Source of the DNA: Candidatus Woesearchaeota archaeon
Lineage (GTDB): Archaea > Nanobdellota > Nanobdellia > Woesearchaeales > SM23-78
Assembly (NCBI GenBank): GCA_016932315.1
Contig: JAFGDD010000004.1
Location: forward strand, 35,457 to 99,456
Length of the DNA stretch: 64,000 bases
Direction of reading: 5' to 3'
The stretch's first letter is position 1. Each line of letters begins with the position of its first letter. Below are positions 1,350 through 56,457 of this stretch, piece after piece. The position numbers and the translations under genes are program-made. The notes beneath the pieces were generated by a model. It worked only from the letters and a program-made list of their open reading frames with translations, searched no databases and was not told where the DNA came from.

Positions 1350-1874
1350 GTGAAAAAAACTAATATTCCGCTCATCGAGGTAAGGAAGGGCAGCATCACC
1401 ACAGTTCAGGTGGATGCCGTTGTTAATCCTGCGAATAGCTTTGGCTTTATGGGCGGAGGAGTGGCTGGAGTGTTGAAGGCTGTGGGCGGCCAGATCATTG
1501 AGGATGAGGCTGTTAATCAGTCTCCTGTGCAGGTCGGGGAAGCCATTATTACTTCTGCCGGTGACTTGGTCTGCCACAAAATAATCCACGCACCTACCAT
1601 GCACAATCCTGGCGAGAGGACTGATGCTCACAAGGTTTTTTGCGCAGCAAAGGCTGCTTTGGAGCTCGCTGATAATGAAGGCTTCAGGAGCATTGCAATT
1701 CCTGGCATGGGAACAGGAGTTGGAGGCTTAAACAAGCCCGAGGCTGCCAGTGCTATGATGAAAGCAATTAATGATATTAAGTTTCACAACATTGAAAAAA
1801 TCATGTTAATGGACATCGATGATGATATGGTGGATGCTTTTAACAAAGCTTTGATAAAACTCAAAAACAAATAA
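1350..1874 (+). CDS. Macro-domain protein (ADP-ribose binding / O-acetyl-ADP-ribose deacetylase family)
   Basis: The N-terminal motif VQVDAVVNPANSFGFMGGGVAGVL and the glycine-rich IPGMGTGVGG loop are characteristic of macro domains. 174 aa is a typical size. Confidence 0.8.
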   Translation: MKKTNIPLIEVRKGSITTVQVDAVVNPANSFGFMGGGVAGVLKAVGGQIIEDEAVNQSPVQVGEAIITSAGDLVCHKIIHAPTMHNPGERTDAHKVFCAAKAALELADNEGFRSIAIPGMGTGVGGLNKPEAASAMMKAINDIKFHNIEKIMLMDIDDDMVDAFNKALIKLKNK

Positions 1875-1889
1875 GTAAGGTGAAATCAA

Positions 1890-2720
1890 ATGGGCAGCTG
1901 GTCAAAAGGTATTTTTGGAAAAGAGTACATAGGAAGAACCGGGATTATCGTTGCCGGGACAATCAGCCCGTATTATGAAAAAAATATTCTTAAAATGTTC
2001 GAGAAAGTGCTTGATAAAAAAGACCAGGTTTATCATGCCTATGTTGTAAAAAAAGGAAAGAATATTCACCCGTTGGTTTTTAATGTATTAGGCGCGCCTG
2101 CTGCTATTGACTGCGTCAGCATACTTCATGACGGCGGATGCAGAAATCTTGTTTTCGTAGGATTCGCCTATGGATTCAAGAATAAAGTTGGTGACGCAGT
2201 GGTTCCTAATAAATCATATCATTTTGACGGAATTTATCATGCATTGAAGATAGATAAGGATTTTAGCCTGCCGGATTATGAGTTGAATGAAAAGCTTAAG
2301 CAAATTCTAAGAAAGGAAAAAAATGATTTTTTTGAAGGCATAAATATAAGTGTGCCCTCTGTCACGCTTCAGCCAAAACACAAAAATAAGGATTATGAAA
2401 GAATAAAACCCACTACCTTGGAAATGGAGTATGCTGCTTTTCTTTCGTGGACCCGAGAAATTGGGATTAGAAGCGCAGGGGTCATGATTATCAGCGACAC
2501 CAAGAATGACAGTATTGGCGACGAAGGCAGAAGAAAAATTCGAAGGGAGAAAAGGGAAAGCGTTATTGCATCCATTGTAAAGAACATTTCTGATTTTGAT
2601 TTAAAACCTCTTAAAAACTCAGAGAAATTTAGTTTGGACCAATGCCTTGCAGAAATAGTTGAAATTGATGATAAAACACTAAGCATTTACAGAAGGAATG
2701 ATAAAAAATTAAAATCCTAG
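1890..2720 (+). CDS. Nucleoside phosphorylase family protein (PNP/UDP phosphorylase family 1, DeoD-like)
   Basis: GAPAAIDCVSILHDGGCRNLVFVGFAYG and LEMEYAAFLSWTREIGIRSAGVMIISD align by eye to the DeoD motifs GIPS..I...EL...G...IRVGSCGA and VEMEAAG...A...G.....C.VSD. Confidence 0.6.
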   Translation: MGSWSKGIFGKEYIGRTGIIVAGTISPYYEKNILKMFEKVLDKKDQVYHAYVVKKGKNIHPLVFNVLGAPAAIDCVSILHDGGCRNLVFVGFAYGFKNKVGDAVVPNKSYHFDGIYHALKIDKDFSLPDYELNEKLKQILRKEKNDFFEGINISVPSVTLQPKHKNKDYERIKPTTLEMEYAAFLSWTREIGIRSAGVMIISDTKNDSIGDEGRRKIRREKRESVIASIVKNISDFDLKPLKNSEKFSLDQCLAEIVEIDDKTLSIYRRNDKKLKS

Positions 2721-4021: not shown

Positions 4022-4372
4022 TCATATTTTAGCGCATATTGCATTAATCATTTCTTCAGCCGATAGTATTTTGTGTCTATCGTTTCTGCATTGATTCAGT
4101 GTTTGGATTGCCTGTCTAAACTGTTCATCAAATTGAGCCAATACGCGTTTATCACAACTATGATATAAGCTCTCCAATGCGTGCAACAAAGCCTCATAAC
4201 GTTTCTTAGCGCTTTCTGCTTGAGCCTTGGATTCTTGGCTTTTAATCGAAGCAGGATTTTTTTCTGGGTAAATCTTTATAGTGCGGTTATAATCTTTTAT
4301 TCTTTTTGATTCTAAGTCTATCAATGAAGCCAACATATCCTGAGTTTTACCTAATAAAGACACTCTTGCCAC
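4022..4372 (-). CDS. Hypothetical small helical protein
   Basis: 116-aa ORF with charged, helical composition and no recognisable motif. Confidence 0.3.
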   Translation of the reverse strand: MARVSLLGKTQDMLASLIDLESKRIKDYNRTIKIYPEKNPASIKSQESKAQAESAKKRYEALLHALESLYHSCDKRVLAQFDEQFRQAIQTLNQCRNDRHKILSAEEMINAICAKI

Positions 4373-4488: not shown

Positions 4489-5349
4489 ATGAGGCACAAG
4501 ATTATTGCTCTTTACAAGAAGGCTGACAAGGGAAAATATGCTATAGGCGCTTTTAATTTTTCGACTAATGAGATTCTTAAGGGAATATTCGATTCTGCAT
4601 TCAAATTGAAGGCTCCGGTGATTATTGCAACGAGCCAGGGCGAAAGGAATTTCTTTGGCTGCGAAGAAAGCGTGGCTGTCTACAAGGCTCTTTACAGGAA
4701 ATACCCAAACATCATTCTGCACGCTGATCACACCAAGTCTTTTGAGGAGATAAAAAAGATAGTTGATGCAGGCTATCCTTCTGTGCATTTTGATGGCTCT
4801 GAACTGGATTTTGAGACCAATTTGAGAGAGACCAAGAAGGCTGTTAAATATGCTCACAGGCACGGAGTGTTTATAGAAGGAGAGCTTGGCGGAATAAAAG
4901 GGGGCTCAACCACGCATAAGGATAAAAGTTTGAAAGATGTTTTGACTGCAGATATACTAACCAATCCTGAACAGGCGGTTGAGTTCGTTAAGAAGACAAA
5001 AGTGGATTCACTGGCTATTAGCGTGGGCAATGCCCATGGCTTGTGGAAGGATTATAAGGCTCTTGATTTTGATAGGATTAAGAAGATAAAGGATAGCACC
5101 CGCAAGTTCCTTGTATTGCACGGAGGCTCTGGGATTACTCCAGAGGATTTCAGGAAAGCAATAAGCCTCGGAATTAATAAGATAAACATCAATACAGAGA
5201 ACAGGATTGCTTTTGTCAATGCGCTAGCCAAGGGATTAAAGGAGAGAAAGGATGATGTTCCTTACAATTATTTGAAGGATGTCAGTGCTGCAATATCAGC
5301 AGTTGTTGATGATAAGATAAAGACTTTCATTTCTGATGGTAAGGTTTGA
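4489..5349 (+). CDS. fba: Class II fructose-bisphosphate / tagatose-bisphosphate aldolase
   Basis: IGAFNFST...PVIIATSQG, ILHADHT, LVLHGGSGIT and NINTE are conserved class II aldolase (Zn) motifs. Size is 286 aa. Confidence 0.85.
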   Translation: MRHKIIALYKKADKGKYAIGAFNFSTNEILKGIFDSAFKLKAPVIIATSQGERNFFGCEESVAVYKALYRKYPNIILHADHTKSFEEIKKIVDAGYPSVHFDGSELDFETNLRETKKAVKYAHRHGVFIEGELGGIKGGSTTHKDKSLKDVLTADILTNPEQAVEFVKKTKVDSLAISVGNAHGLWKDYKALDFDRIKKIKDSTRKFLVLHGGSGITPEDFRKAISLGINKININTENRIAFVNALAKGLKERKDDVPYNYLKDVSAAISAVVDDKIKTFISDGKV

Positions 5350-6235
5350 AAAAAATAAAATGACTCTGGTAATTGGAATTGATTTGGGCGGCAGCAAGAT
5401 TAAGGGTATTCTTGTTGATGAGAAAGGCAATGTTATGAACAACTATGAGCGACTGACAGAATCAGATAATCCGAGAAAAGAAATCCTTGCCAACATATTT
5501 GAGGTCATTGACAAGCTAATGGTGCATGGCGTTGAGGCAGTTGGGTTTTCGACGCCCGGGTTTGAGCTGCCTAATGGCAAGATGACTTGCATGCCTAATA
5601 TCAAGAAGCTCGAAGGAGTTAAGCTCAGGAAGGAATTAGAGAAGAAAACCAAACTGAGTGTTTTTCTTGAGAATGACGCCAACTGCTTTGCCCTTGCAGA
5701 GCAGAGACAGGGTGCTGCAAAGGGTTGCAAAAATGTTATTGGAGTGATAATCGGCACTGGAGTGGGCGGCGGCATTATTATTGAGAGGAAGATTTATCGC
5801 GGTGCAGTTGGCGGAGCAGGAGAAATAGGGCACACAAAATTATTAGTTAACAATAATAACAATAACAGCGAATTAAAGGAAATCGAAGAATTAATCTCTG
5901 GTCCTGACCTCATTCAGAGATACGAGCTTCTTAGTGGAAAAAGAGCAGATAGCCCTGCTGTCTTGCTTGACAAGAAGGATGAGTTCGCAAGAAAAGTTTA
6001 TGATGAGTTTGTCTTTTACACTGGCGTGTTTTTTGCAAACCTTATCAACACATTCAATCCTGATATGATTGTTGTGGGTGGCGGAGTGAGCAACCTTCCA
6101 TTTTACAAGGAAGTTGAAAAGATTGCTAAAAAATATGCTCATCCAGAGCTTGGCAGGGTTTGCCGGATTGTGAAGAACAAGCTAGGCGATGATTCTGGCA
6201 CAATAGGTGCTGCTGAACTGGCTTTGGACCATTAA
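5336..6235 (+). CDS. ROK-family sugar kinase (glucokinase-like)
   Basis: IGIDLGGSKIKG N-terminal ATP motif. Sugar-kinase motifs (IGTGVGGG around residue 140, GGGVS near the C-terminus) are present but the canonical ROK zinc CxCGxxGC motif is absent. The true start may be the second ATG (MTLVIGIDLGG, nt 5360). Contains an Asn6 low-complexity insertion (nt about 5821-5840). Confidence 0.8.
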   Translation: MVRFEKNKMTLVIGIDLGGSKIKGILVDEKGNVMNNYERLTESDNPRKEILANIFEVIDKLMVHGVEAVGFSTPGFELPNGKMTCMPNIKKLEGVKLRKELEKKTKLSVFLENDANCFALAEQRQGAAKGCKNVIGVIIGTGVGGGIIIERKIYRGAVGGAGEIGHTKLLVNNNNNNSELKEIEELISGPDLIQRYELLSGKRADSPAVLLDKKDEFARKVYDEFVFYTGVFFANLINTFNPDMIVVGGGVSNLPFYKEVEKIAKKYAHPELGRVCRIVKNKLGDDSGTIGAAELALDH

Positions 6236-12165: not shown

Positions 12166-13122
12166 GTGGGAAAAGAGATGGAAAGCGTTAAGAACATTGA
12201 GAAGCTAAAGGAGACTTTTAGCAATGTCACAAAGGAGATAAGCAAGGTCATTGTGGGGCAGGAAGAGGTTATTGAGCAGATACTCGTCGCGATACTCTGC
12301 GACGCCAATGCCCTGCTTGAAAGTTACCCTGGGCTTGGAAAGACCACTATGGTCAAGACTATTGCAAATGTTCTGGATTTAAAATTCAGCAGAATACAGA
12401 ACACCCCTGACCTCATGCCGAGCGATATCATAGGCACTTATGTTATTGAGGAGGATAAGGGTAAAAAGGTTTTCAGGTTTCAGAAAGGACCTGTGTTTGC
12501 CAATGTAATACTTGCAGATGAGATTAACAGGGCTACTCCAAAGACTCAGTCAGCCTTATTAGAGGCTATGCAGGAAAAGCAGGTAACTGTGGGCAACCAG
12601 ACTTTTGAGCTTGAAAGGCCGTTCTTTGTATTAGCAACCCAGAACCCGATTGACATGGAAGGAACTTATCCTTTGCCAGAAGCACAGGTAGACAGGTTCT
12701 TGTTAAAGATACTTGTTGGCTATCCTAAGTTTGATGATGAAATGGAAATAATTAACAGGTACACCAAAGCAAGTGCTGATGCTGGCGTCAGAGTTTTGTT
12801 AAGCAAGGAATCATTAACCTTATTGCAAAATCTTACCAGGCAGGTGCCTATTGCTGATGACATAAAGAAGAGGGCTCTTGAGATTGTGGCTAAGACCAGG
12901 ACTGCAAAAGATTTAATAGAGTACGGGGCAAGCCCTAGAGCCAGTATTGGATTGATACTCGCAGCCAAAGCTAAGGCTCTTCTTGATGGCAGGAAGTATG
13001 TTAGTGCCAAGGATGTTGAAGACATGGCTTATCCGGTGCTCAGGCACAGATTAATACTTAATTTCAAAGCAGAAAGAGATGGCAAGACCCCTGATGACGT
13101 GATAAGGGAGATATTGAAGTAG
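12166..13122 (+). CDS. moxR: MoxR-family AAA+ ATPase
   Basis: Walker A (PGLGKTT), Walker B (LADEINRA) and the TQNP...EGTYPLPEAQ.DRF sensor region are diagnostic of MoxR/RavA-type ATPases. GGAGG RBS precedes the GTG/ATG start. Confidence 0.85.
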   Translation: MGKEMESVKNIEKLKETFSNVTKEISKVIVGQEEVIEQILVAILCDANALLESYPGLGKTTMVKTIANVLDLKFSRIQNTPDLMPSDIIGTYVIEEDKGKKVFRFQKGPVFANVILADEINRATPKTQSALLEAMQEKQVTVGNQTFELERPFFVLATQNPIDMEGTYPLPEAQVDRFLLKILVGYPKFDDEMEIINRYTKASADAGVRVLLSKESLTLLQNLTRQVPIADDIKKRALEIVAKTRTAKDLIEYGASPRASIGLILAAKAKALLDGRKYVSAKDVEDMAYPVLRHRLILNFKAERDGKTPDDVIREILK

Positions 13123-13587
13123 GATATTGTTGAGCCCGACACCGCCCCCAGGTGCAAACTTCTTTGGCAGAAGAAGTTAAGCGCGTTAATTGGGGGATGC
13201 CCAAGCAAAAGAGCAGGGCTCTTTTGATGTGCGAAGAAAACAAAGTTTTCTAGCACAACGAAACAAGTTTCGTTTGTCCCAAAAACAGAGTTTTTGTGAC
13301 CATCCGGGAAGATAGCGCCCAAGAAAAACAGAATCAAAAGTTTGCAAGGCGGTTGGGCGGAAAAAAAATATTTGTCGAAATAAGCCCTACTAGCTCCGCT
13401 CGTCTCGCCATGCAAATTTGCTAAAGTAAACTATCGAATAGTTTACTCAAAATTTATTTAGTCAAATAAATTTTGTTGCATTTGAAGGTGCTCAAAAACG
13501 AGTTTTTGGCACACCAAAAGCTTTGCTTTTGATTGCTTCGCCGGTCTTATTTCGACCTGAAGAAACAAAAAAAATTGAAAACAAAAA
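13123..13587. other. Atypical 465-bp intergenic element, hairpin-rich and locally GC-elevated, between moxR and the DUF58 gene
   Basis: At least six short perfect palindromes are present. These include AGAAAACaaaGTTTTCT, ACGAAACaaGTTTCGT, CAAAAACagaGTTTTTG, CAAAAACgaGTTTTTG, GTAAACTATcgaATAGTTTAC and CAAAATTTATTTagtcAAATAAATTTTG. The segment at about 13130-13420 is clearly GC-richer than its surroundings. Confidence 0.5.
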
Positions 13588-14442
13588 ATGGCAATTGATA
13601 TTGGATTCCTAAAAGAGCTGGACAGGTTTAACCTCGTTATAAAGAAGAGAGTATTATCAAGGTATCAGGGAGAAAGAGCCAGCCATGCAGAAGGGCAAGG
13701 ATTAGTGTTTGCTGATTACAAGGATTATGTGCCTGGAGATGACTTCAGGGCAGTTGACTGGAGGGTTTATGCCAGGACAGACAAGTTCTTCATCAAGAGG
13801 TTTGAGGAAGAAAGGAACATGACAGTGCACGTCATAGTTGATGCTAGTGCAAGCATGGATTATGGCAGGAAGATAACCAAGTTTGATTATGCAAGCATGA
13901 TAGGATTAGGATTTGCTTACATGGCATTGAAGAATAATGAGAAATTTAATTTTTCCACATTCTCAGAAGGGCTGAATTATCTCAAGGCAAGGAAGGGTTG
14001 GAACCAGTTAATGAATATATTATCAATACTTGAAAAGCTCAAAGTCACTGGTAAGTCTGCTTTTACAAAATCATTTGATGAGTACAAGAAGTACATGCGC
14101 AGCAAAAGCTTCATAGTAATAATATCTGACTTCCTATATGATATCGAGGAAATAAAAGCTGCTCTTTCAAGATTTACAAAGCATGAGGTGATTATCATCC
14201 AAGTGCTTGATCCTGAGGAGAGAAGGCTTGCTCTTTACGGCGACTGCGTGCTTGAAGACAGCGAGTTTCACACCAAGCTCAGAACCTTTATCAGCAACAG
14301 ATTGATAAGCAATTACAGGAATAAGATAGAAACCCATATCAGAGCCATCAAGGACACCTGCGAGCACATGGACTATGATTTCATAAGCGTCACCACAGAC
14401 ACACCGATATTCGATACTTTCTATGCTGCGCTGAGGACTTAG
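13588..14442 (+). CDS. DUF58-family protein (MoxR partner, vWA-like fold)
   Basis: VFADYKDYVPGDDFRAVDWRVYARTDKFFIKRFEEERN...HVIVDASASMDYG is the conserved DUF58 core. Confidence 0.8.
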   Translation: MAIDIGFLKELDRFNLVIKKRVLSRYQGERASHAEGQGLVFADYKDYVPGDDFRAVDWRVYARTDKFFIKRFEEERNMTVHVIVDASASMDYGRKITKFDYASMIGLGFAYMALKNNEKFNFSTFSEGLNYLKARKGWNQLMNILSILEKLKVTGKSAFTKSFDEYKKYMRSKSFIVIISDFLYDIEEIKAALSRFTKHEVIIIQVLDPEERRLALYGDCVLEDSEFHTKLRTFISNRLISNYRNKIETHIRAIKDTCEHMDYDFISVTTDTPIFDTFYAALRT

Positions 14443-22830: not shown

Positions 22831-24015
22831 ATGGCTCAAAAGACTAAGCGTGCAATGACTGGAGCAGAGTGTTCTGCAGAAGCCATGAGACAAGTTAACC
22901 CTGACGTGGTAGCTGCTTATCCTATTACTCCGCAGACTGACATCATGCATGCATTCGCCCAGTTTGTGGCAGATGGAACAGTGGACACTGACCTTATAAC
23001 AGTTGAGTCAGAGCACAGTGCAATGAGCGCCTGCGTAGGAGCAGGAGCTGCTGGCGCAAGAACCATGACTGCGACAAGCGCTAATGGATTAGCTTTGATG
23101 TGGGAAATAATTTATGTTGCTTCAGGATTAAGGATTCCCATGGTTATGAACGTGGTTAACCGCGCACTAAGCGGGCCTATTAATATTCACTGCGACCATT
23201 CAGACAGCATGGGGTGCAGGGATTCTGGCTGGATTCAACTATATTCTGAGAATGGAGAAGAAGCTTATGAGAATACATTAATGGCTGTAAAGATTAGCGA
23301 GCACCCTGATGTACTGCTGCCAGTAATGGTTTGCCAGGACGGATTCATAACAAGCCATTGCGTTGAAACAGCAGAAACAATAGATGATGAGACAATAAAG
23401 AATTTCATCGGAACATACAATCCACATTATCCTTTGCTCGATGTTGACAAGCCAGTGACTTATGGAGCATTAGACTTGTTTGATTATTATTTCGAGCACA
23501 AAAGGCAGCAACTGCTTGCAATTGAGAACTCCAAGCCTGTAATCAAAAAAGTATTTGAAGAATTCGGAAAAATATCAGGTAAGAATTATGATTTCTTTGA
23601 AAGCTACATGCTCGAAGATGCTGAGAGGGTTATTTTCTGCTCTAACAGCAGCGCAGGAAGCGCCCGTGTAGTTGTTGATGAGCTTCGCGCAAAAGGAGAG
23701 AAAGTTGGCCTTCTAAAGATGAGAGTCTTCAGGCCCTGGCTTAATGAAATGGTTGTTGAAAAGCTAAAGAATGCAAAAGCAGTTGCTGTGCTTGACAGGA
23801 GCGCGAGCTTTGGAGCAATTGGCGGGCCATTATTCATGGAAGTGAGGAGCAGCTTCCACGAGTCAGCTCATAAACCTAGTATTATCAATTATATTTATGG
23901 ACTTGGCGGCAGGGAATTAGATTTAGATCAAATAAGGAAAGTGTTTTCAGAACTTGAAGACGTTAAGAATGGCAATACTGGAGAACTATTAAAATACTTG
24001 GGAGTGAGGGAGTGA
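22831..24015 (+). CDS. porA: Pyruvate:ferredoxin oxidoreductase alpha subunit
   Basis: The N-terminus (MTGAECSAEAMRQVNPDVVAAYPITPQT) and overall similarity are typical of PorA. Size is 394 aa. Confidence 0.85.
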   Translation: MAQKTKRAMTGAECSAEAMRQVNPDVVAAYPITPQTDIMHAFAQFVADGTVDTDLITVESEHSAMSACVGAGAAGARTMTATSANGLALMWEIIYVASGLRIPMVMNVVNRALSGPINIHCDHSDSMGCRDSGWIQLYSENGEEAYENTLMAVKISEHPDVLLPVMVCQDGFITSHCVETAETIDDETIKNFIGTYNPHYPLLDVDKPVTYGALDLFDYYFEHKRQQLLAIENSKPVIKKVFEEFGKISGKNYDFFESYMLEDAERVIFCSNSSAGSARVVVDELRAKGEKVGLLKMRVFRPWLNEMVVEKLKNAKAVAVLDRSASFGAIGGPLFMEVRSSFHESAHKPSIINYIYGLGGRELDLDQIRKVFSELEDVKNGNTGELLKYLGVRE

Positions 24016-24143
24016 ATTAAGAGAGAATTAAACACAGCGAAAATGGTTAATTGCAAAAACAAAGTTTTTGAATCAACAAAATCGAAGATTTTGGGTGCTA
24101 AAAATAAATTTTTAAGCATTCCCAAATTTTCAAAGGTGAAAAT

Positions 24144-25070
24144 TTGGTAAACATTCGTGAACTAGCATTGGACGGCGAAAGATTAGTATCTGGCCACAGG
24201 CTTTGCCCTGGCTGCGGATTAAGCATAATAGCCAGAGCAGTGATGCGGGGAACAAAGGATCCTATAATAGTATCCAATGCAACAGGCTGCCTTGAAGTAA
24301 GCACCACAATTTATCCATTCACTGCGTGGGATGTTCCCTGGATACACAATGCTTTTGAGAATGCAGCAGCAACCATCTCAGGAGCAGAATCTGCTTATAA
24401 TGTGCTAAAGAAAAAAGGAAAAATCACAAAAAACATTAAGTTCCTTGCATTCGGCGGCGACGGAGGAACATATGACATTGGCCTCCAATCATTATCTGGC
24501 GCATTAGAGCGAGGACACACATTCGTTTATGTCTGCGTTGACAATGAAGGCTACATGAACACAGGAATACAGAGGAGCAGCAGCACACCAATGGGAGCTT
24601 GGACTAATACTAGCGCTGTCGGCAAGGCTCATCAAGGGAAAGAGCAGTACAAGAAAGACTTGACTGCAGTTGTTGCAGGCCACCACATACCTTATGTCGC
24701 CCAAGCCAGCCCTCATAATTACATGGACTTGGTGAGAAAAGCAGAGAAGGCATTCAACACAAAAGGACCAGCATTCATTAATGTTCTCAGCCCCTGCGTT
24801 CCAGGATGGAAATACCCTGCGCAGCTCACAATAAAAATGGCAAAGCTTGCAGTCGACACCTGCTTCTGGCCATTGTATGAGATAGAGAACGGAGTATGGA
24901 CTCTAAACTATAATCCTGGCCCTAACAAGAAGCCAATCACAGAGTGGCTCAAGACTCAAGGAAGATTCAGGCACCTGATGAAGCCGGAAAACGCCCACAT
25001 TGTAGAAGCAATACAGAAGAATATTGATGAGCGCTGGGAAGAATTAAAGAAGTGGTGCGGGAAGAATTAA
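24144..25070 (+). CDS. porB: Pyruvate:ferredoxin oxidoreductase beta subunit (TPP-binding)
   Basis: LCPGCG, the TPP motif GGDGGTYDIG...N and the downstream NNE.YMNTG region are present. Confidence 0.85.
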   Translation: MVNIRELALDGERLVSGHRLCPGCGLSIIARAVMRGTKDPIIVSNATGCLEVSTTIYPFTAWDVPWIHNAFENAAATISGAESAYNVLKKKGKITKNIKFLAFGGDGGTYDIGLQSLSGALERGHTFVYVCVDNEGYMNTGIQRSSSTPMGAWTNTSAVGKAHQGKEQYKKDLTAVVAGHHIPYVAQASPHNYMDLVRKAEKAFNTKGPAFINVLSPCVPGWKYPAQLTIKMAKLAVDTCFWPLYEIENGVWTLNYNPGPNKKPITEWLKTQGRFRHLMKPENAHIVEAIQKNIDERWEELKKWCGKN

Positions 25071-25092
25071 ATTTTAAAAAAATAAAATTTTC

Positions 25093-27309: not shown

Positions 27310-27383
27310 AACTCACCTCTTATAATGAATCTCTTTATTTGTTATTTTTTATATAAGTATAAAAAAGTTCCTGTGTTTGCTCT

Positions 27384-42515: not shown

Positions 42516-42683
42516 TCTAATAAGCCCAGCATGATTAAATTTAATATTATTAAATTTAATATTATTTTTTTTTATATTGCTAACCTTGTTGCTTTTCCCC
42601 TTCATAATATAAACCTCTTTTTTAATTCTGCTCTTAAAATTACCATCTCATCAATGTCAAGTTACATTAATTTTATGTGGTTG

Positions 42684-53589: not shown

Positions 53590-54420
53590 TTATTTAATCA
53601 ATAGATATTTCTTCATTTCATCCTGAATTTCTTCCTCTGAGAATGCTATCAGGGGCATTAATATGAACATATTAATAGGGTGTTGCTTTATGTTGGTGAG
53701 TGTGTCTGAGGTAATGATTGCTTTGCAGTCAAGTTTCTTTGCTATTTCGTCTATTTCAGGAATTTTTTTTATTTTATGAAGAATTAATTTATAAGGGCAA
53801 AATTCTTGTAATAAGGAATAATTTGTGTCTGAAGAAGCCACTAATTCAACTGCGCATCCTCTCCTCATAATCAGGAGCGCTGCTAGGATTGACTTCTCAT
53901 CAGAAACTAACGCTAACACCTTGCCTTCAACGCCCGCGGGCAATCCTCCAAAGCAATTAATGGTTTTTGTGAATAAGAATGCTTCATCATCAATTATTTC
54001 AACACATATATCAAGATCTGGCTTTTCCAAGTCCACTTTCCAGCCTTTCTTCTGCACTATAAATGCTCCTATTTGCTTGTTAAGCTCCAAGGAGGAAGAG
54101 AAGCGTTCTTTGGTTAGTCTTCTGGCACTTATCTTGAAACTGGTGGTTTTCTCGTGGTTTTCAGCTTGTTTTAAGGCTTCTGAACAAATTGCTTTAATCT
54201 CAGCGCTGGTTTTGGTGCAGGGGCTGTAGGAAACATTTCCAAAAACTCTGCGAAAATCAAGCTCATGCTCTGCTTCAACTAATAATCTGCCTGGAAGCTG
54301 TTTTATTCTTGGCTTGAAAGCTGAAAGCTGGCTTCGGATGTTAGTCATGAGCCTTTTCTCAAACTCTGACCTATTCTTGCCTTTCAGTGCAATTTCTGCG
54401 TATCGCACAAGGTAAATCAT
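53590..54420 (-). CDS. ThiI-like THUMP-domain protein with degenerate PP-loop
   Basis: The N-terminus (YLVRYAEIALKGKNRSEFEKRL) matches the ThiI ferredoxin-like/THUMP region. Where ThiI has SGGIDS, this protein has LALVSDEKS. The protein is about 110 aa shorter than ThiI. Confidence 0.5.
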   Translation of the reverse strand: MIYLVRYAEIALKGKNRSEFEKRLMTNIRSQLSAFKPRIKQLPGRLLVEAEHELDFRRVFGNVSYSPCTKTSAEIKAICSEALKQAENHEKTTSFKISARRLTKERFSSSLELNKQIGAFIVQKKGWKVDLEKPDLDICVEIIDDEAFLFTKTINCFGGLPAGVEGKVLALVSDEKSILAALLIMRRGCAVELVASSDTNYSLLQEFCPYKLILHKIKKIPEIDEIAKKLDCKAIITSDTLTNIKQHPINMFILMPLIAFSEEEIQDEMKKYLLIK

Positions 54421-54510: not shown

Positions 54511-54562
54511 CCGTTATAACGTGTTATAACGCATTATAACGCCCGTTATAACGTGTTATAAT
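54511..54562. repeat. Tandem array (5 copies, 10/10/12/10-bp phasing) of the palindromic octamer GTTATAAC
   Basis: GTTATAAC at 54513, 54523 and 54545. One-mismatch copies ATTATAAC at 54533 and GTTATAAT at 54555. Lies about 90-140 bp upstream of the ThiI-like start and 14 bp past the stop of the wHTH regulator gene. Confidence 0.8.
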
Positions 54563-54575
54563 GTTTAGAATTTTT

Positions 54576-55256
54576 TTAGAGGTTATAAAGTTTTTTAACT
54601 TTGGCTTTGTGTCTGAGGCTAAAAAGTTTAACGCCGTTTGGAAGAGTGCTTTCATCAATAAAACCTTTGAATTTGAGCTGGTTCATATAGACGCGAATAG
54701 TGCTCAAAGTCTTTCCAGTGCGTTCTGCTATCTGATTATATGACAAAGGGTTTTCTGCATTGAATAAAACCCCTACAAGCCATTTCTCTGGATTAGAGAG
54801 GGTATCATAAAAAGGCTCAGGCATTATGGCTTTAACATTATTAACATTAGAAATATTAGTTTCCTTGGGTTTTTGCCTTGTTTCATTCATAAAAACCTCG
54901 ACTTCCTTTAAAATCTCTTTTTTTATGGTCTGAGCATCCTTAATGTTCTTGGTATATGCCTCTTTGAAGAGGTTGAGAGAGGCTGTACTTAAAGCTTCAA
55001 ACTCTTCATCCAGTTTCTTCTCTAAAACCTTCAGGTCCTGATCCAACCGTCTAATTGAACCATCAAAGTGTTTTATCCAGTCAGCAATTCTTTGGTGATT
55101 AAGAAAAGTTGTCTGCTTAAAACCATGATGATTTATGTAAAGCTCTTCCAAAAGCTTTTTTTGCGACGAGAAATCTTCCCTTATCTTGGCAAATGCATCT
55201 GTTAGTCCTGAGTTCATCTGCTCGAGCCTAATTCTCTTTCTAATCCAACCCAACAT
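54576..55256 (-). CDS. Coiled-coil / winged-helix DNA-binding protein (putative transcription regulator)
   Basis: Helical N-terminal two-thirds. C-terminal HTH (SYNQIAERTGKTLSTIRVYMNQLKFKGFID). Confidence 0.45.
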   Translation of the reverse strand: MLGWIRKRIRLEQMNSGLTDAFAKIREDFSSQKKLLEELYINHHGFKQTTFLNHQRIADWIKHFDGSIRRLDQDLKVLEKKLDEEFEALSTASLNLFKEAYTKNIKDAQTIKKEILKEVEVFMNETRQKPKETNISNVNNVKAIMPEPFYDTLSNPEKWLVGVLFNAENPLSYNQIAERTGKTLSTIRVYMNQLKFKGFIDESTLPNGVKLFSLRHKAKVKKLYNL

Positions 55257-56299: not shown

Positions 56300-56344
56300 C
56301 AAAAACTCGCTGCTCGCGCTCGTCCCTATCCTGAAGGGAGGATA

Positions 56345-56374
56345 TTGCGGCACTCGCTTAACCGCAAGTTTTTG
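56345..56374 (+). terminator. Hairpin followed by T-run downstream of tbp
   Basis: TTGCGG cactcgcttaa CCGCAA GTTTTTG. Confidence 0.4.
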
Positions 56375-56376
56375 AA

Positions 56377-56397
56377 TTGACAAGCTTCGCTTGTCAA
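56377..56397. promoter_or_regulatory. Perfect 9-bp inverted repeat TTGACAAGC ttc GCTTGTCAA between tbp and mcm
   Basis: Seen directly. Followed by an AT-rich stretch leading into the mcm promoter. Confidence 0.5.
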
Positions 56398-56457
56398 TAA
56401 ATTTTTATTAATTTTTTATTAGTTCGCATAATCGTAATATATTGTGGGTGGTGTTTT

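Follow-up and report, generated by a model that had tools for sequence, protein, structure and literature searches.

Miniature inverted-repeat transposable element-like foldback repeats probably fill the moxR-DUF58 spacer of a woesearchaeal genome

Introduction

Prokaryotic MITEs (miniature inverted-repeat transposable elements), non-autonomous derivatives of insertion sequences (ISs), include Correia/NEMIS of Neisseria, RUP and BOX of Streptococcus, ERIC/IRU of enterobacteria, SM of Sulfolobus and the haloarchaeal MITEs. In a published census of prokaryotic MITEs, one woesearchaeal genome, at 105 per Mb, ranks with the archaeal genomes of highest MITE density (PMC11602168). The bacterial repetitive extragenic palindromes (REPs), with their bacterial interspersed mosaic elements (BIMEs) and REPIN doublets, are mobilised by the Y1 enzyme RAYT (REP-associated tyrosine transposase). 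A REP is an imperfect palindrome of 20-40 bp, and its end tag is a conserved GTAG or CGTC (PMC3733652). Here we describe the 465-bp spacer between moxR and a DUF58 gene in Candidatus Woesearchaeota archaeon (assembly GCA_016932315.1), located at 13123-13587 of a 64,000-nucleotide stretch of contig JAFGDD010000004.1 (positions 35,457 to 99,456), which was analysed as a whole and is called the window. The content of this spacer is most likely a lineage-specific insertion of small selfish inverted-repeat elements and not a conserved RNA gene. The kind of element is known, and the repeat family and its occurrence inside DPANN operons are the new details.

Results

Anatomy of the repeat units

Two copies of a MITE-like foldback repeat, set head to head and each ending in terminal inverted repeats when complete, probably make up the spacer. 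A complete right copy (U1, 13374-13556) would adjoin an older, inverted and partly truncated left copy (UL, about 13185-13373), arranged as follows.

13123-13184, no strand assigned: left segment, origin unassigned, with hairpin AACTTCTTtggcagAAGAAGTT (13157-13178) nested in CCCCCA (13145-13150) and TGGGGG (13190-13195)
13185-13373, minus strand: left copy UL, inverted, diverged and probably truncated, with homology to the right copy over 13203-13361; contains hairpin A' (13206-13226), hairpin B' (GTGC..GCAC, 13229-13256), AACGAAACaaGTTTCGTT (13257-13274) and GTCCCAAAAACagaGTTTTTGTGAC (13276-13300)
13374-13556, plus strand: right copy U1, complete 183-bp unit closed by terminal inverted repeats, homologous to 1790-1967 (minus strand) of relative L088
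13374-13387, plus strand: left terminal inverted repeat GTCGAAATAAGCCC (pair I3, 93% complementary), at a position homologous to the L088 repeat AGTCCTAAATGCCC
13425-13475, no strand assigned: variable centre of U1, two perfect palindromes, AGTAAACTATcgaATAGTTTACT and CAAAATTTATTTagtcAAATAAATTTTG
13488-13512, no strand assigned: hairpin B, GTGC(T)CAAAAACgaGTTTTTGGCAC, the module with the strongest conservation, near-identical in L088 (GGTGCCAAAAACtttGTTTTTGAGCACC)
13515-13531, no strand assigned: hairpin A, CAAAAGCtttGCTTTTG, with counterparts CAAAAAGCaaaaaGCTTTTTG (L088), CAAAAGAGCaggGCTCTTTTG (UL) and CAAAATCgaaGATTTTG (porA-porB spacer)
13543-13556, plus strand: right terminal inverted repeat GGTCTTATTTCGAC (pair I3)
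13557-13587, plus strand: A-rich residual native leader of DUF58, outside the terminal repeats, with a composition like the short spacers of relatives

The two 14-bp terminal repeats of U1 match at 13 of 14 positions and, when the unit is folded as single-stranded DNA (z = -7.0), form a closing stem around branch hairpins. They are the real ends of the unit, in place of the weak inverted repeats near 13158 and 13516 that an earlier reading made from the sequence alone (the sequence-only reading) had taken for termini. The second central palindrome holds a TATA-box-like TTTATTTA on both strands, a candidate promoter by sequence. Hairpin B has the form CAAAAAC-loop-GTTTTTG, closed by GTGC/GCAC with one bulged base, and carries a T5 run after the loop on either strand.

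Local alignment of 13394-13538 with the reverse complement of 13203-13361 gives a score of 61, where shuffles average 25.8 (z = 8.5), and the inverted pairs I2, I5, I7, I11 and I15 agree with a left half that is an inverted copy. This assignment explains those five pairs together with the long inner stem 13338-13361/13394-13420, and the head-to-head arrangement accounts for the long-range pairing and the hairpin density. The two copies are about 65% identical, so UL is older or independently inserted, neither a recent duplication nor an amplification artefact. Its outer end retains an ATGCCC motif resembling the L088 terminal repeat, and its inner end abuts the left repeat of U1.

The module order is constant in four copies, running from hairpin A (CAAAAxC-loop-GxTTTTG) through a GTGC linker, hairpin B and AGCAC to a variable hairpin C. 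Stem changes are paired, with AAGC/GCTT against AATC/GATT, and with C-G against T-A at both hairpin B ends in the porA-porB copy. As a structural signal these changes are suggestive, coming from four sequences of a palindromic DNA in which paired changes may come about even when RNA is not under selection. The hairpin A stems are unequal and are misaligned by MAFFT.

A homologous unit and empty sites in relatives

Relatives were taken as a graded series from a protein-guided metagenome scan with DUF58. In all 17 close relatives (DUF58 73-95% identical, moxR on the same contig), the moxR-DUF58 spacer measures -2 to 102 bp. The closest, L082 (DUF58 95%, MoxR 93%), has a 58-bp spacer without similarity to the element, between coding flanks that align.

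One relative, L088, carries a homologous unit at a different site. In blastn, window positions 13477-13544 match the minus strand of L088 at 1874-1802, with 82% identity across 73 nt (E=2e-10). The homology of U1 and the L088 block is supported by nhmmer (E about 5e-6), and their local alignment, which extends from repeat to repeat, reaches a score of 95 where shuffles average 25 (z = 15.8). The L088 unit, 178 bp long (1790-1967), starts directly after the DUF7502 stop codon in the DUF7502-moxR spacer and is bounded by perfect 14-bp inverted repeats, AGTCCTAAATGCCC/GGGCATTTAGGACT, with 1790-1803 pairing to 1954-1967 at 14 of 14 positions. Relative to the same-strand genes, its orientation is opposite to that of the window unit. 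Its predicted fold (z = -8.5) has the architecture of U1, a closing terminal-repeat stem around three or four short hairpins. The spacer that holds it measures 239 bp, against 46-76 bp in most relatives, and beyond the 178-bp block is homologous to the native spacer of L087.

Occupancy of the two sites is reciprocal: in the window the DUF7502-moxR spacer is empty (70 bp) and the moxR-DUF58 spacer filled (465 bp), and in L088 the former is filled (239 bp) and the latter empty (15 bp). As read from these sequence comparisons, the spacer content is an insertion and not a conserved feature of the site.

A small hairpin, GGTCGC-loop-GCGAC, is also conserved in L087 and L088; it stands just before the moxR Shine-Dalgarno sequence, at about 25-45 nt upstream of the start, and may be a native regulatory hairpin.

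Gene context, palindromes and folding of the spacer

The window covers locus tags JW756_01270 to JW756_01515, with proteins MBN2052107-MBN2052158. The element lies in a co-directional gene row encoding a VWA protein, a coiled-coil protein, DUF7502, MoxR and DUF58, between the following two genes.

12166-13122, plus strand: moxR (AAA_3 ATPase), upstream flank, outside the element; Pfam AAA_3 (8.8e-63) and AAA_lid_2
13588-14442, plus strand: DUF58 gene, downstream flank, outside the element; Pfam DUF58 (2.4e-40)

At 465 bp, their spacer is the longest gap in the window, where the median spacer is 72 bp. It contains nine perfect palindromes (stem at least 7, loop 2-7), a number reached by none of 1000 dinucleotide shuffles (mean 0.50) and compared with 0.33 per 465 bp in the remainder of the window. 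Folding is far stronger than in shuffles, with z = -5.4 on the plus and -6.3 on the minus strand, values that no other window spacer longer than 110 bp comes near. Palindrome enrichment, spacer length and folding score together establish that the hairpin-rich spacer is real and not a product of chance. All six palindromes named by the sequence-only reading are present where it placed them, and three more were found.

13157-13178: AACTTCTTtggcagAAGAAGTT, additional
13206-13226: CAAAAGAGCaggGCTCTTTTG, additional
13235-13251: AGAAAACaaaGTTTTCT, named earlier
13257-13274: (A)ACGAAACaaGTTTCGT(T), named earlier
13280-13296: CAAAAACagaGTTTTTG, named earlier
13425-13447: (A)GTAAACTATcgaATAGTTTAC(T), named earlier
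13448-13475: CAAAATTTATTTagtcAAATAAATTTTG, named earlier
13493-13508: CAAAAACgaGTTTTTG, named earlier
13515-13531: CAAAAGCtttGCTTTTG, additional

Their geometry varies, with stems of 7-12 bp, loops of 2-6 nt and differing inner sequences. An outer CAAAA...TTTTG stem is common to 8 of the 12 perfect palindromes of the moxR-DUF58 and por clusters, the inner stems differing compensatorily. The motif AAAAC-N2-4-GTTTT occurs four times in the window against 0.72 expected, three of the four inside the spacer.

The same reading had also emphasised a GC-rich island. The GC content of the first 300 bp, 45.7%, is indeed far above the 26.9% of all other spacers, but it exceeds coding DNA (40.9%) and the window mean (40.1%) only modestly, 8% of 300-bp windows being equally high. 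Open reading frames (ORFs) wholly inside the spacer reach only 41-42 aa, and a 128-aa minus-strand ORF overlapping it has no Pfam match. A scan for sigma-70 promoters and intrinsic terminators, whose models are not suited to archaea, gave counts not above shuffles, with one terminator-like site in the element (13500-13523).

Nothing in the window reached an Rfam gathering score. When 13000-13700 was searched at E<=10, no signal recognition particle (SRP), RNase P or C/D match appeared, which leaves a suggested resemblance to SRP helix 8 without support; the only matches there were chance microRNA and small-RNA hairpins of 20 bits or less, far below thresholds. The moxR-DUF58 spacer of the distant relative L002, searched at E<=10, gave no SRP, RNase P, C/D, riboswitch or ribozyme match, and a tRNA/tmRNA scan of the window found none.

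A related module between porA and porB

A second cluster of four perfect palindromes occupies the porA-porB spacer of the window, which is 128 bp long (24016 on), against 24 or 49 bp in relatives.

24046-24147, minus strand: cluster related to the hairpin module (A, A', B, C), diverged and partial, inserted between porA (22831-24015) and porB (24144-25070)

This cluster is colinear with the reverse complement of U1 in the order of hairpins and linkers, with compensatory stem changes. The porB start is a TTG at 24144, within the last hairpin of the cluster, whose loop provides a Shine-Dalgarno-like AGGTGA. An ATG in the ancestral start context is kept at 24043 and opens a 35-codon out-of-frame frame ending at 24150. 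A possible direct repeat, GAAAATGGTTAAT / GAAAATTTGGTAAAC, is seen around this fragment only.

Intein domains were observed in several PorB homologues (P0006, P0014), and an intein interrupts moxR in L107 (283-2832; Pfam Intein_splicing and LAGLIDADG_3) and also in L105.

Copy number and independent assembly

Within the 64-kb window there are one complete, one degenerate and one partial copy. No further copy was found in 4 kb more of the source genome, in 22 kb of the closest relative or, except for L088, in about 0.9 Mb of relatives. Among about 25 window ORFs scanned with Pfam, none encodes a transposase, RAYT or IS200-like protein. The element has no blastn match in phage and plasmid collections. 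Pattern scans of IMG/VR gave no hit to the hairpin B pattern and none to the L088 terminal-repeat pair; a 16-mer search of the same database returned 50 hits, none homologous by nhmmer, and these were rejected as chance matches.

Logan contigs from run SRR13394437 show 100% identity with the window sequence up to 13227, beginning 4 kb ahead of the window, and once more from 13451 onward. The two contigs, L170 and L001, end at palindromes, 13206-13226 and 13448-13475 respectively, L001 starting at 13451. The outer 105 bp and 137 bp of the element are thus reproduced exactly and contiguous with the correct flanking genes, confirming the junctions with moxR and DUF58. The 223-bp core (13228-13450) is on neither contig and rests on one assembly; a break around it is expected for repeated or polymorphic DNA.

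The moxR-DUF58 operon in other lineages

Distant relatives L002 and L005 have structured moxR-DUF58 spacers of 360-380 bp that share no sequence with the window element, and the L002 spacers have no internal repeat. In L005, another Nanoarchaeota metagenome-assembled genome (MAG), the moxR-DUF58 spacer (4237-4294) matches the DUF7502-moxR spacer (2872-2815, minus strand) over 58 nt at 81% (E=7e-9). This hairpin-containing repeat is a separate family in two neighbouring spacers of one operon, so that several Woesearchaeota lineages carry their own hairpin repeats in spacers of the moxR-DUF58 operon.

Elsewhere the gap holds small reading frames. A 44-50-aa ORF with a TFIIB-type zinc ribbon (Pfam Zn_Ribbon_TF, 2.4e-10) lies between moxR and DUF58 in L104 (2861-2996) and also in L105, L106 and L107, making the spacer host to a small gene in that clade. 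In the distant relative L052, a small ORF (MDEEKIHEAQFMQLVMSMQ..., 4999-5365), not repeats, fills a gap of roughly 415 bp.

Other features of the window

Five copies of the palindromic octamer GTTATAAC (one ATTATAAC), spaced with a 10-12 bp period, occupy 54512-54561. Two minus-strand genes flank them: a winged-helix gene (54576-55256), from which they are 15 nt downstream, and a ThiI/THUMP gene (53590-54420), to which they are upstream by about 90-140 nt. From its sequence, this array looks like an operator or iteron array. Between the TBP and MCM genes, 56300-56400 contains a GC-rich segment of about 60 nt closed by CAAAAACT...AGTTTTTG and followed by ATTGACAAGCttcGCTTGTCAAT, which is a perfect palindrome; folding of the minus strand gives z = -4.2. 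The region matches nothing in Rfam and is not significantly similar to the repeat family. At 42534-42566 stands ATTAAATTTAATAtTATTAAATTTAAT, a long palindrome/tandem of A and T only, upstream of the NCBI-called start of a DUF4215-like gene, whose product is 540 aa by the NCBI call and 670 aa as the longest ORF.

Discussion

The proposed history of the locus is one in which non-autonomous foldback repeats would have inserted into the normally tiny moxR-DUF58 spacer in this Woesearchaeota lineage. A transposase encoded at some other locus would have recognised their 14-bp ends and moved them in trans. Each unit would fold, as single-stranded DNA or as RNA of either strand, into a terminal-repeat stem enclosing three or four short A/T-rich hairpins of the form CAAAA-x-loop-x'-TTTTG. 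The insertion was presumably selfish and roughly neutral. Read-through from moxR may add a multi-hairpin RNA segment with T5 runs, perhaps partly terminating or insulating transcription, and DUF58 would then depend on read-through or on the promoter-like AT palindrome inside the element.

Several properties of the units are those of MITEs. At 183 and 178 bp they fall below the size bound of about 600 bp and are without coding capacity, terminal repeats stand at homologous positions in both, and filled and empty sites are reciprocal between the window and L088, with all 17 close relatives empty at moxR-DUF58. The MITE-like insertion that the sequence-only reading had listed among its alternatives is supported by the homologous L088 unit and the terminal repeats, with boundaries and repeats other than those it proposed. 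Other observations weigh against this interpretation. Of a target-site duplication, a further mark of MITEs, none is visible by eye at either complete unit, and the flanks, ATATTT|...|CTGAAG in the window and AAGTAA|...|AAGCTA in L088, contain no direct repeat, although the left flank of the window unit is itself another copy, which obscures the original target. About 0.95 Mb of clade DNA gave only two full copies, one degenerate copy and one partial copy, no transposase is among the roughly 25 window ORFs scanned, no longer element with the same ends was seen, and no other terminal-repeat copy was found in the window or the compared clade DNA. The two-copy arrangement does not account for the leftmost 62 bp (13123-13184), which resemble the repeat family only weakly (z about 2.6, p about 0.02). 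The sequence similarity of the por cluster is not significant (nhmmer E = 0.41), and its assignment rests on colinearity and stem covariation.

If the mobile or selected unit were instead the short palindrome module (hairpins A-B-C), spread and clustered like bacterial REPs, the enzyme acting on it would be of the Y1 type (RAYT or IS200-like), working on single-stranded hairpins, and not a DDE transposase, and the host might use the module as an element for mRNA ends or mRNA stability. The por spacer, which carries the module without terminal repeats, would fit such a system, as would the CAAAA...TTTTG outer stem shared by 8 of 12 palindromes with compensatory inner stems, the clustering inside operons as in BIMEs, the absent target-site duplication, which is also compatible with Y1-type insertion, and the REPIN-like head-to-head doublet (PMC3116915). 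We nevertheless regard a REP/BIME-like origin, the principal variant, as unlikely: both complete units are bounded at homologous positions by terminal inverted repeats of 14 bp, a feature that REPs do not have, the palindromes end in CAAAA...TTTTG and show neither a conserved GTAG nor a conserved CGTC tag, the window ORFs scanned include no gene of RAYT or IS200-like type, and copy number is apparently low. The stronger proposal, that the conserved three-hairpin module (CAAAAxC..GxTTTTG, then GTGC-CAAAAAC..GTTTTTG-GCAC, then a variable hairpin) is an archaeal counterpart of REP/BIME, a structure-selected, hairpin-mobilised repeat system in DPANN genomes, is likewise doubtful. Such a system would colonise the operon spacers moxR-DUF58, porA-porB and DUF7502-moxR and could terminate transcription in both directions, affect RNA stability or even supply translation start signals.

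A structured RNA gene was the leading idea of the sequence-only reading, and a novel one, or a cis-regulatory leader of DUF58, could be missing from Rfam simply by being new. The very strong folding scores, the GC content relative to other spacers and the structured 360-380 bp spacers at the same position in L002 and L005 are what such a gene would give. It is made improbable by the lack of any Rfam match to a structured RNA class even at E<=10, by the absence of the element from 17 of 17 close relatives at the orthologous site, by the unrelated sequences of the L002 and L005 spacers and by the homologous L088 copy at another site in opposite orientation. Moreover, both strands fold equally well, as palindromic DNA does and a strand-specific RNA does not. 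Oligo-T is the archaeal termination signal, and each CAAAAAC..GTTTTTG palindrome gives a T5 run on both strands; a non-mobile cluster of hairpins and T-tracts could have arisen at the site itself, as a transcription terminator or insulator by which DUF58 is uncoupled from moxR. AT palindromes at other gene ends of the window (e.g., 25069-25090 and 27345-27366) and the terminator-like site at 13500-13523 fit this scenario, yet terminator-like sites are no more frequent than in shuffles, the L088 homology at a different site and the terminal inverted repeats are left unexplained, and the module also splits porA from porB, which encode two subunits of the same enzyme and between which termination would do harm. 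We judge evolution in place to be about as improbable as an RNA gene. A multi-site operator array for a dimeric regulator, another suggestion of that reading, is more improbable still. Four palindromes do share the half-site AAAAC/GTTTT, and an ArsR/TrmB-like helix-turn-helix gene lies 1.4 kb downstream, but stem length (7-12 bp), loop length (2-6) and inner sequence are not constant, the changes are compensatory, relatives with the same helix-turn-helix gene lack the palindromes, and the palindromes belong to a terminal-repeat-bounded unit present elsewhere. An inverted chimera or mis-join, for which the inverted-duplication architecture and the failure of the independent Logan assembly to span 13228-13450 might speak, seems highly improbable: an amplification chimera would give identical arms and these are about 65% alike, the outer 105 bp and 137 bp recur exactly in the second assembly with the correct flanking genes, and a homologous unit exists in an unrelated sample (L088).

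With MITE-like foldback repeats as the favoured explanation, the locus is cautionary: a GC-rich, strongly folding intergenic island in an AT-rich archaeon resembles a non-coding RNA gene and can be a mobile foldback repeat, and comparison with close relatives settles between the two where folding scores cannot. Very small Woesearchaeota genomes tolerate insertions in tightly coupled operons, here those of moxR-DUF58 and the four-subunit pyruvate:ferredoxin oxidoreductase, and one may ask how the genes downstream remain expressed. Should the family prove abundant, its units would be useful strain markers and a source of assembly breaks in DPANN MAGs, and such repeats are likely a general cause of contig breaks in DPANN MAGs.

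Compared with archaeal SRP (7S) RNA and other GC-rich non-coding RNA islands, the window spacer is similar in length (about 300 nt), in a GC content above that of neighbouring spacers and in strong predicted structure; it differs from these RNAs in having no covariance-model match, positional conservation or strand preference, and in being repeated elsewhere in inverted orientation. With REP/BIME and REPIN doublets it shares palindrome clusters between co-transcribed genes, compensatory stems, a head-to-head doublet and no visible flanking duplication, and it is set apart from them by its terminal inverted repeats, the lack of a GTAG/CGTC tag, the absence of a RAYT gene among the ORFs scanned, its archaeal host and its apparently low copy number. 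Unlike the known prokaryotic MITEs, it has no detectable target-site duplication, no known cognate IS and few copies, and its interior consists of several short A/T-rich perfect palindromes and not of one long stem. Like them, it is about 180 bp long, non-coding and intergenic, ends in 14-bp terminal inverted repeats and forms a long branched hairpin, and it is present or absent by site among close relatives, occurring in either orientation, inside operons and predicted to be co-transcribed.

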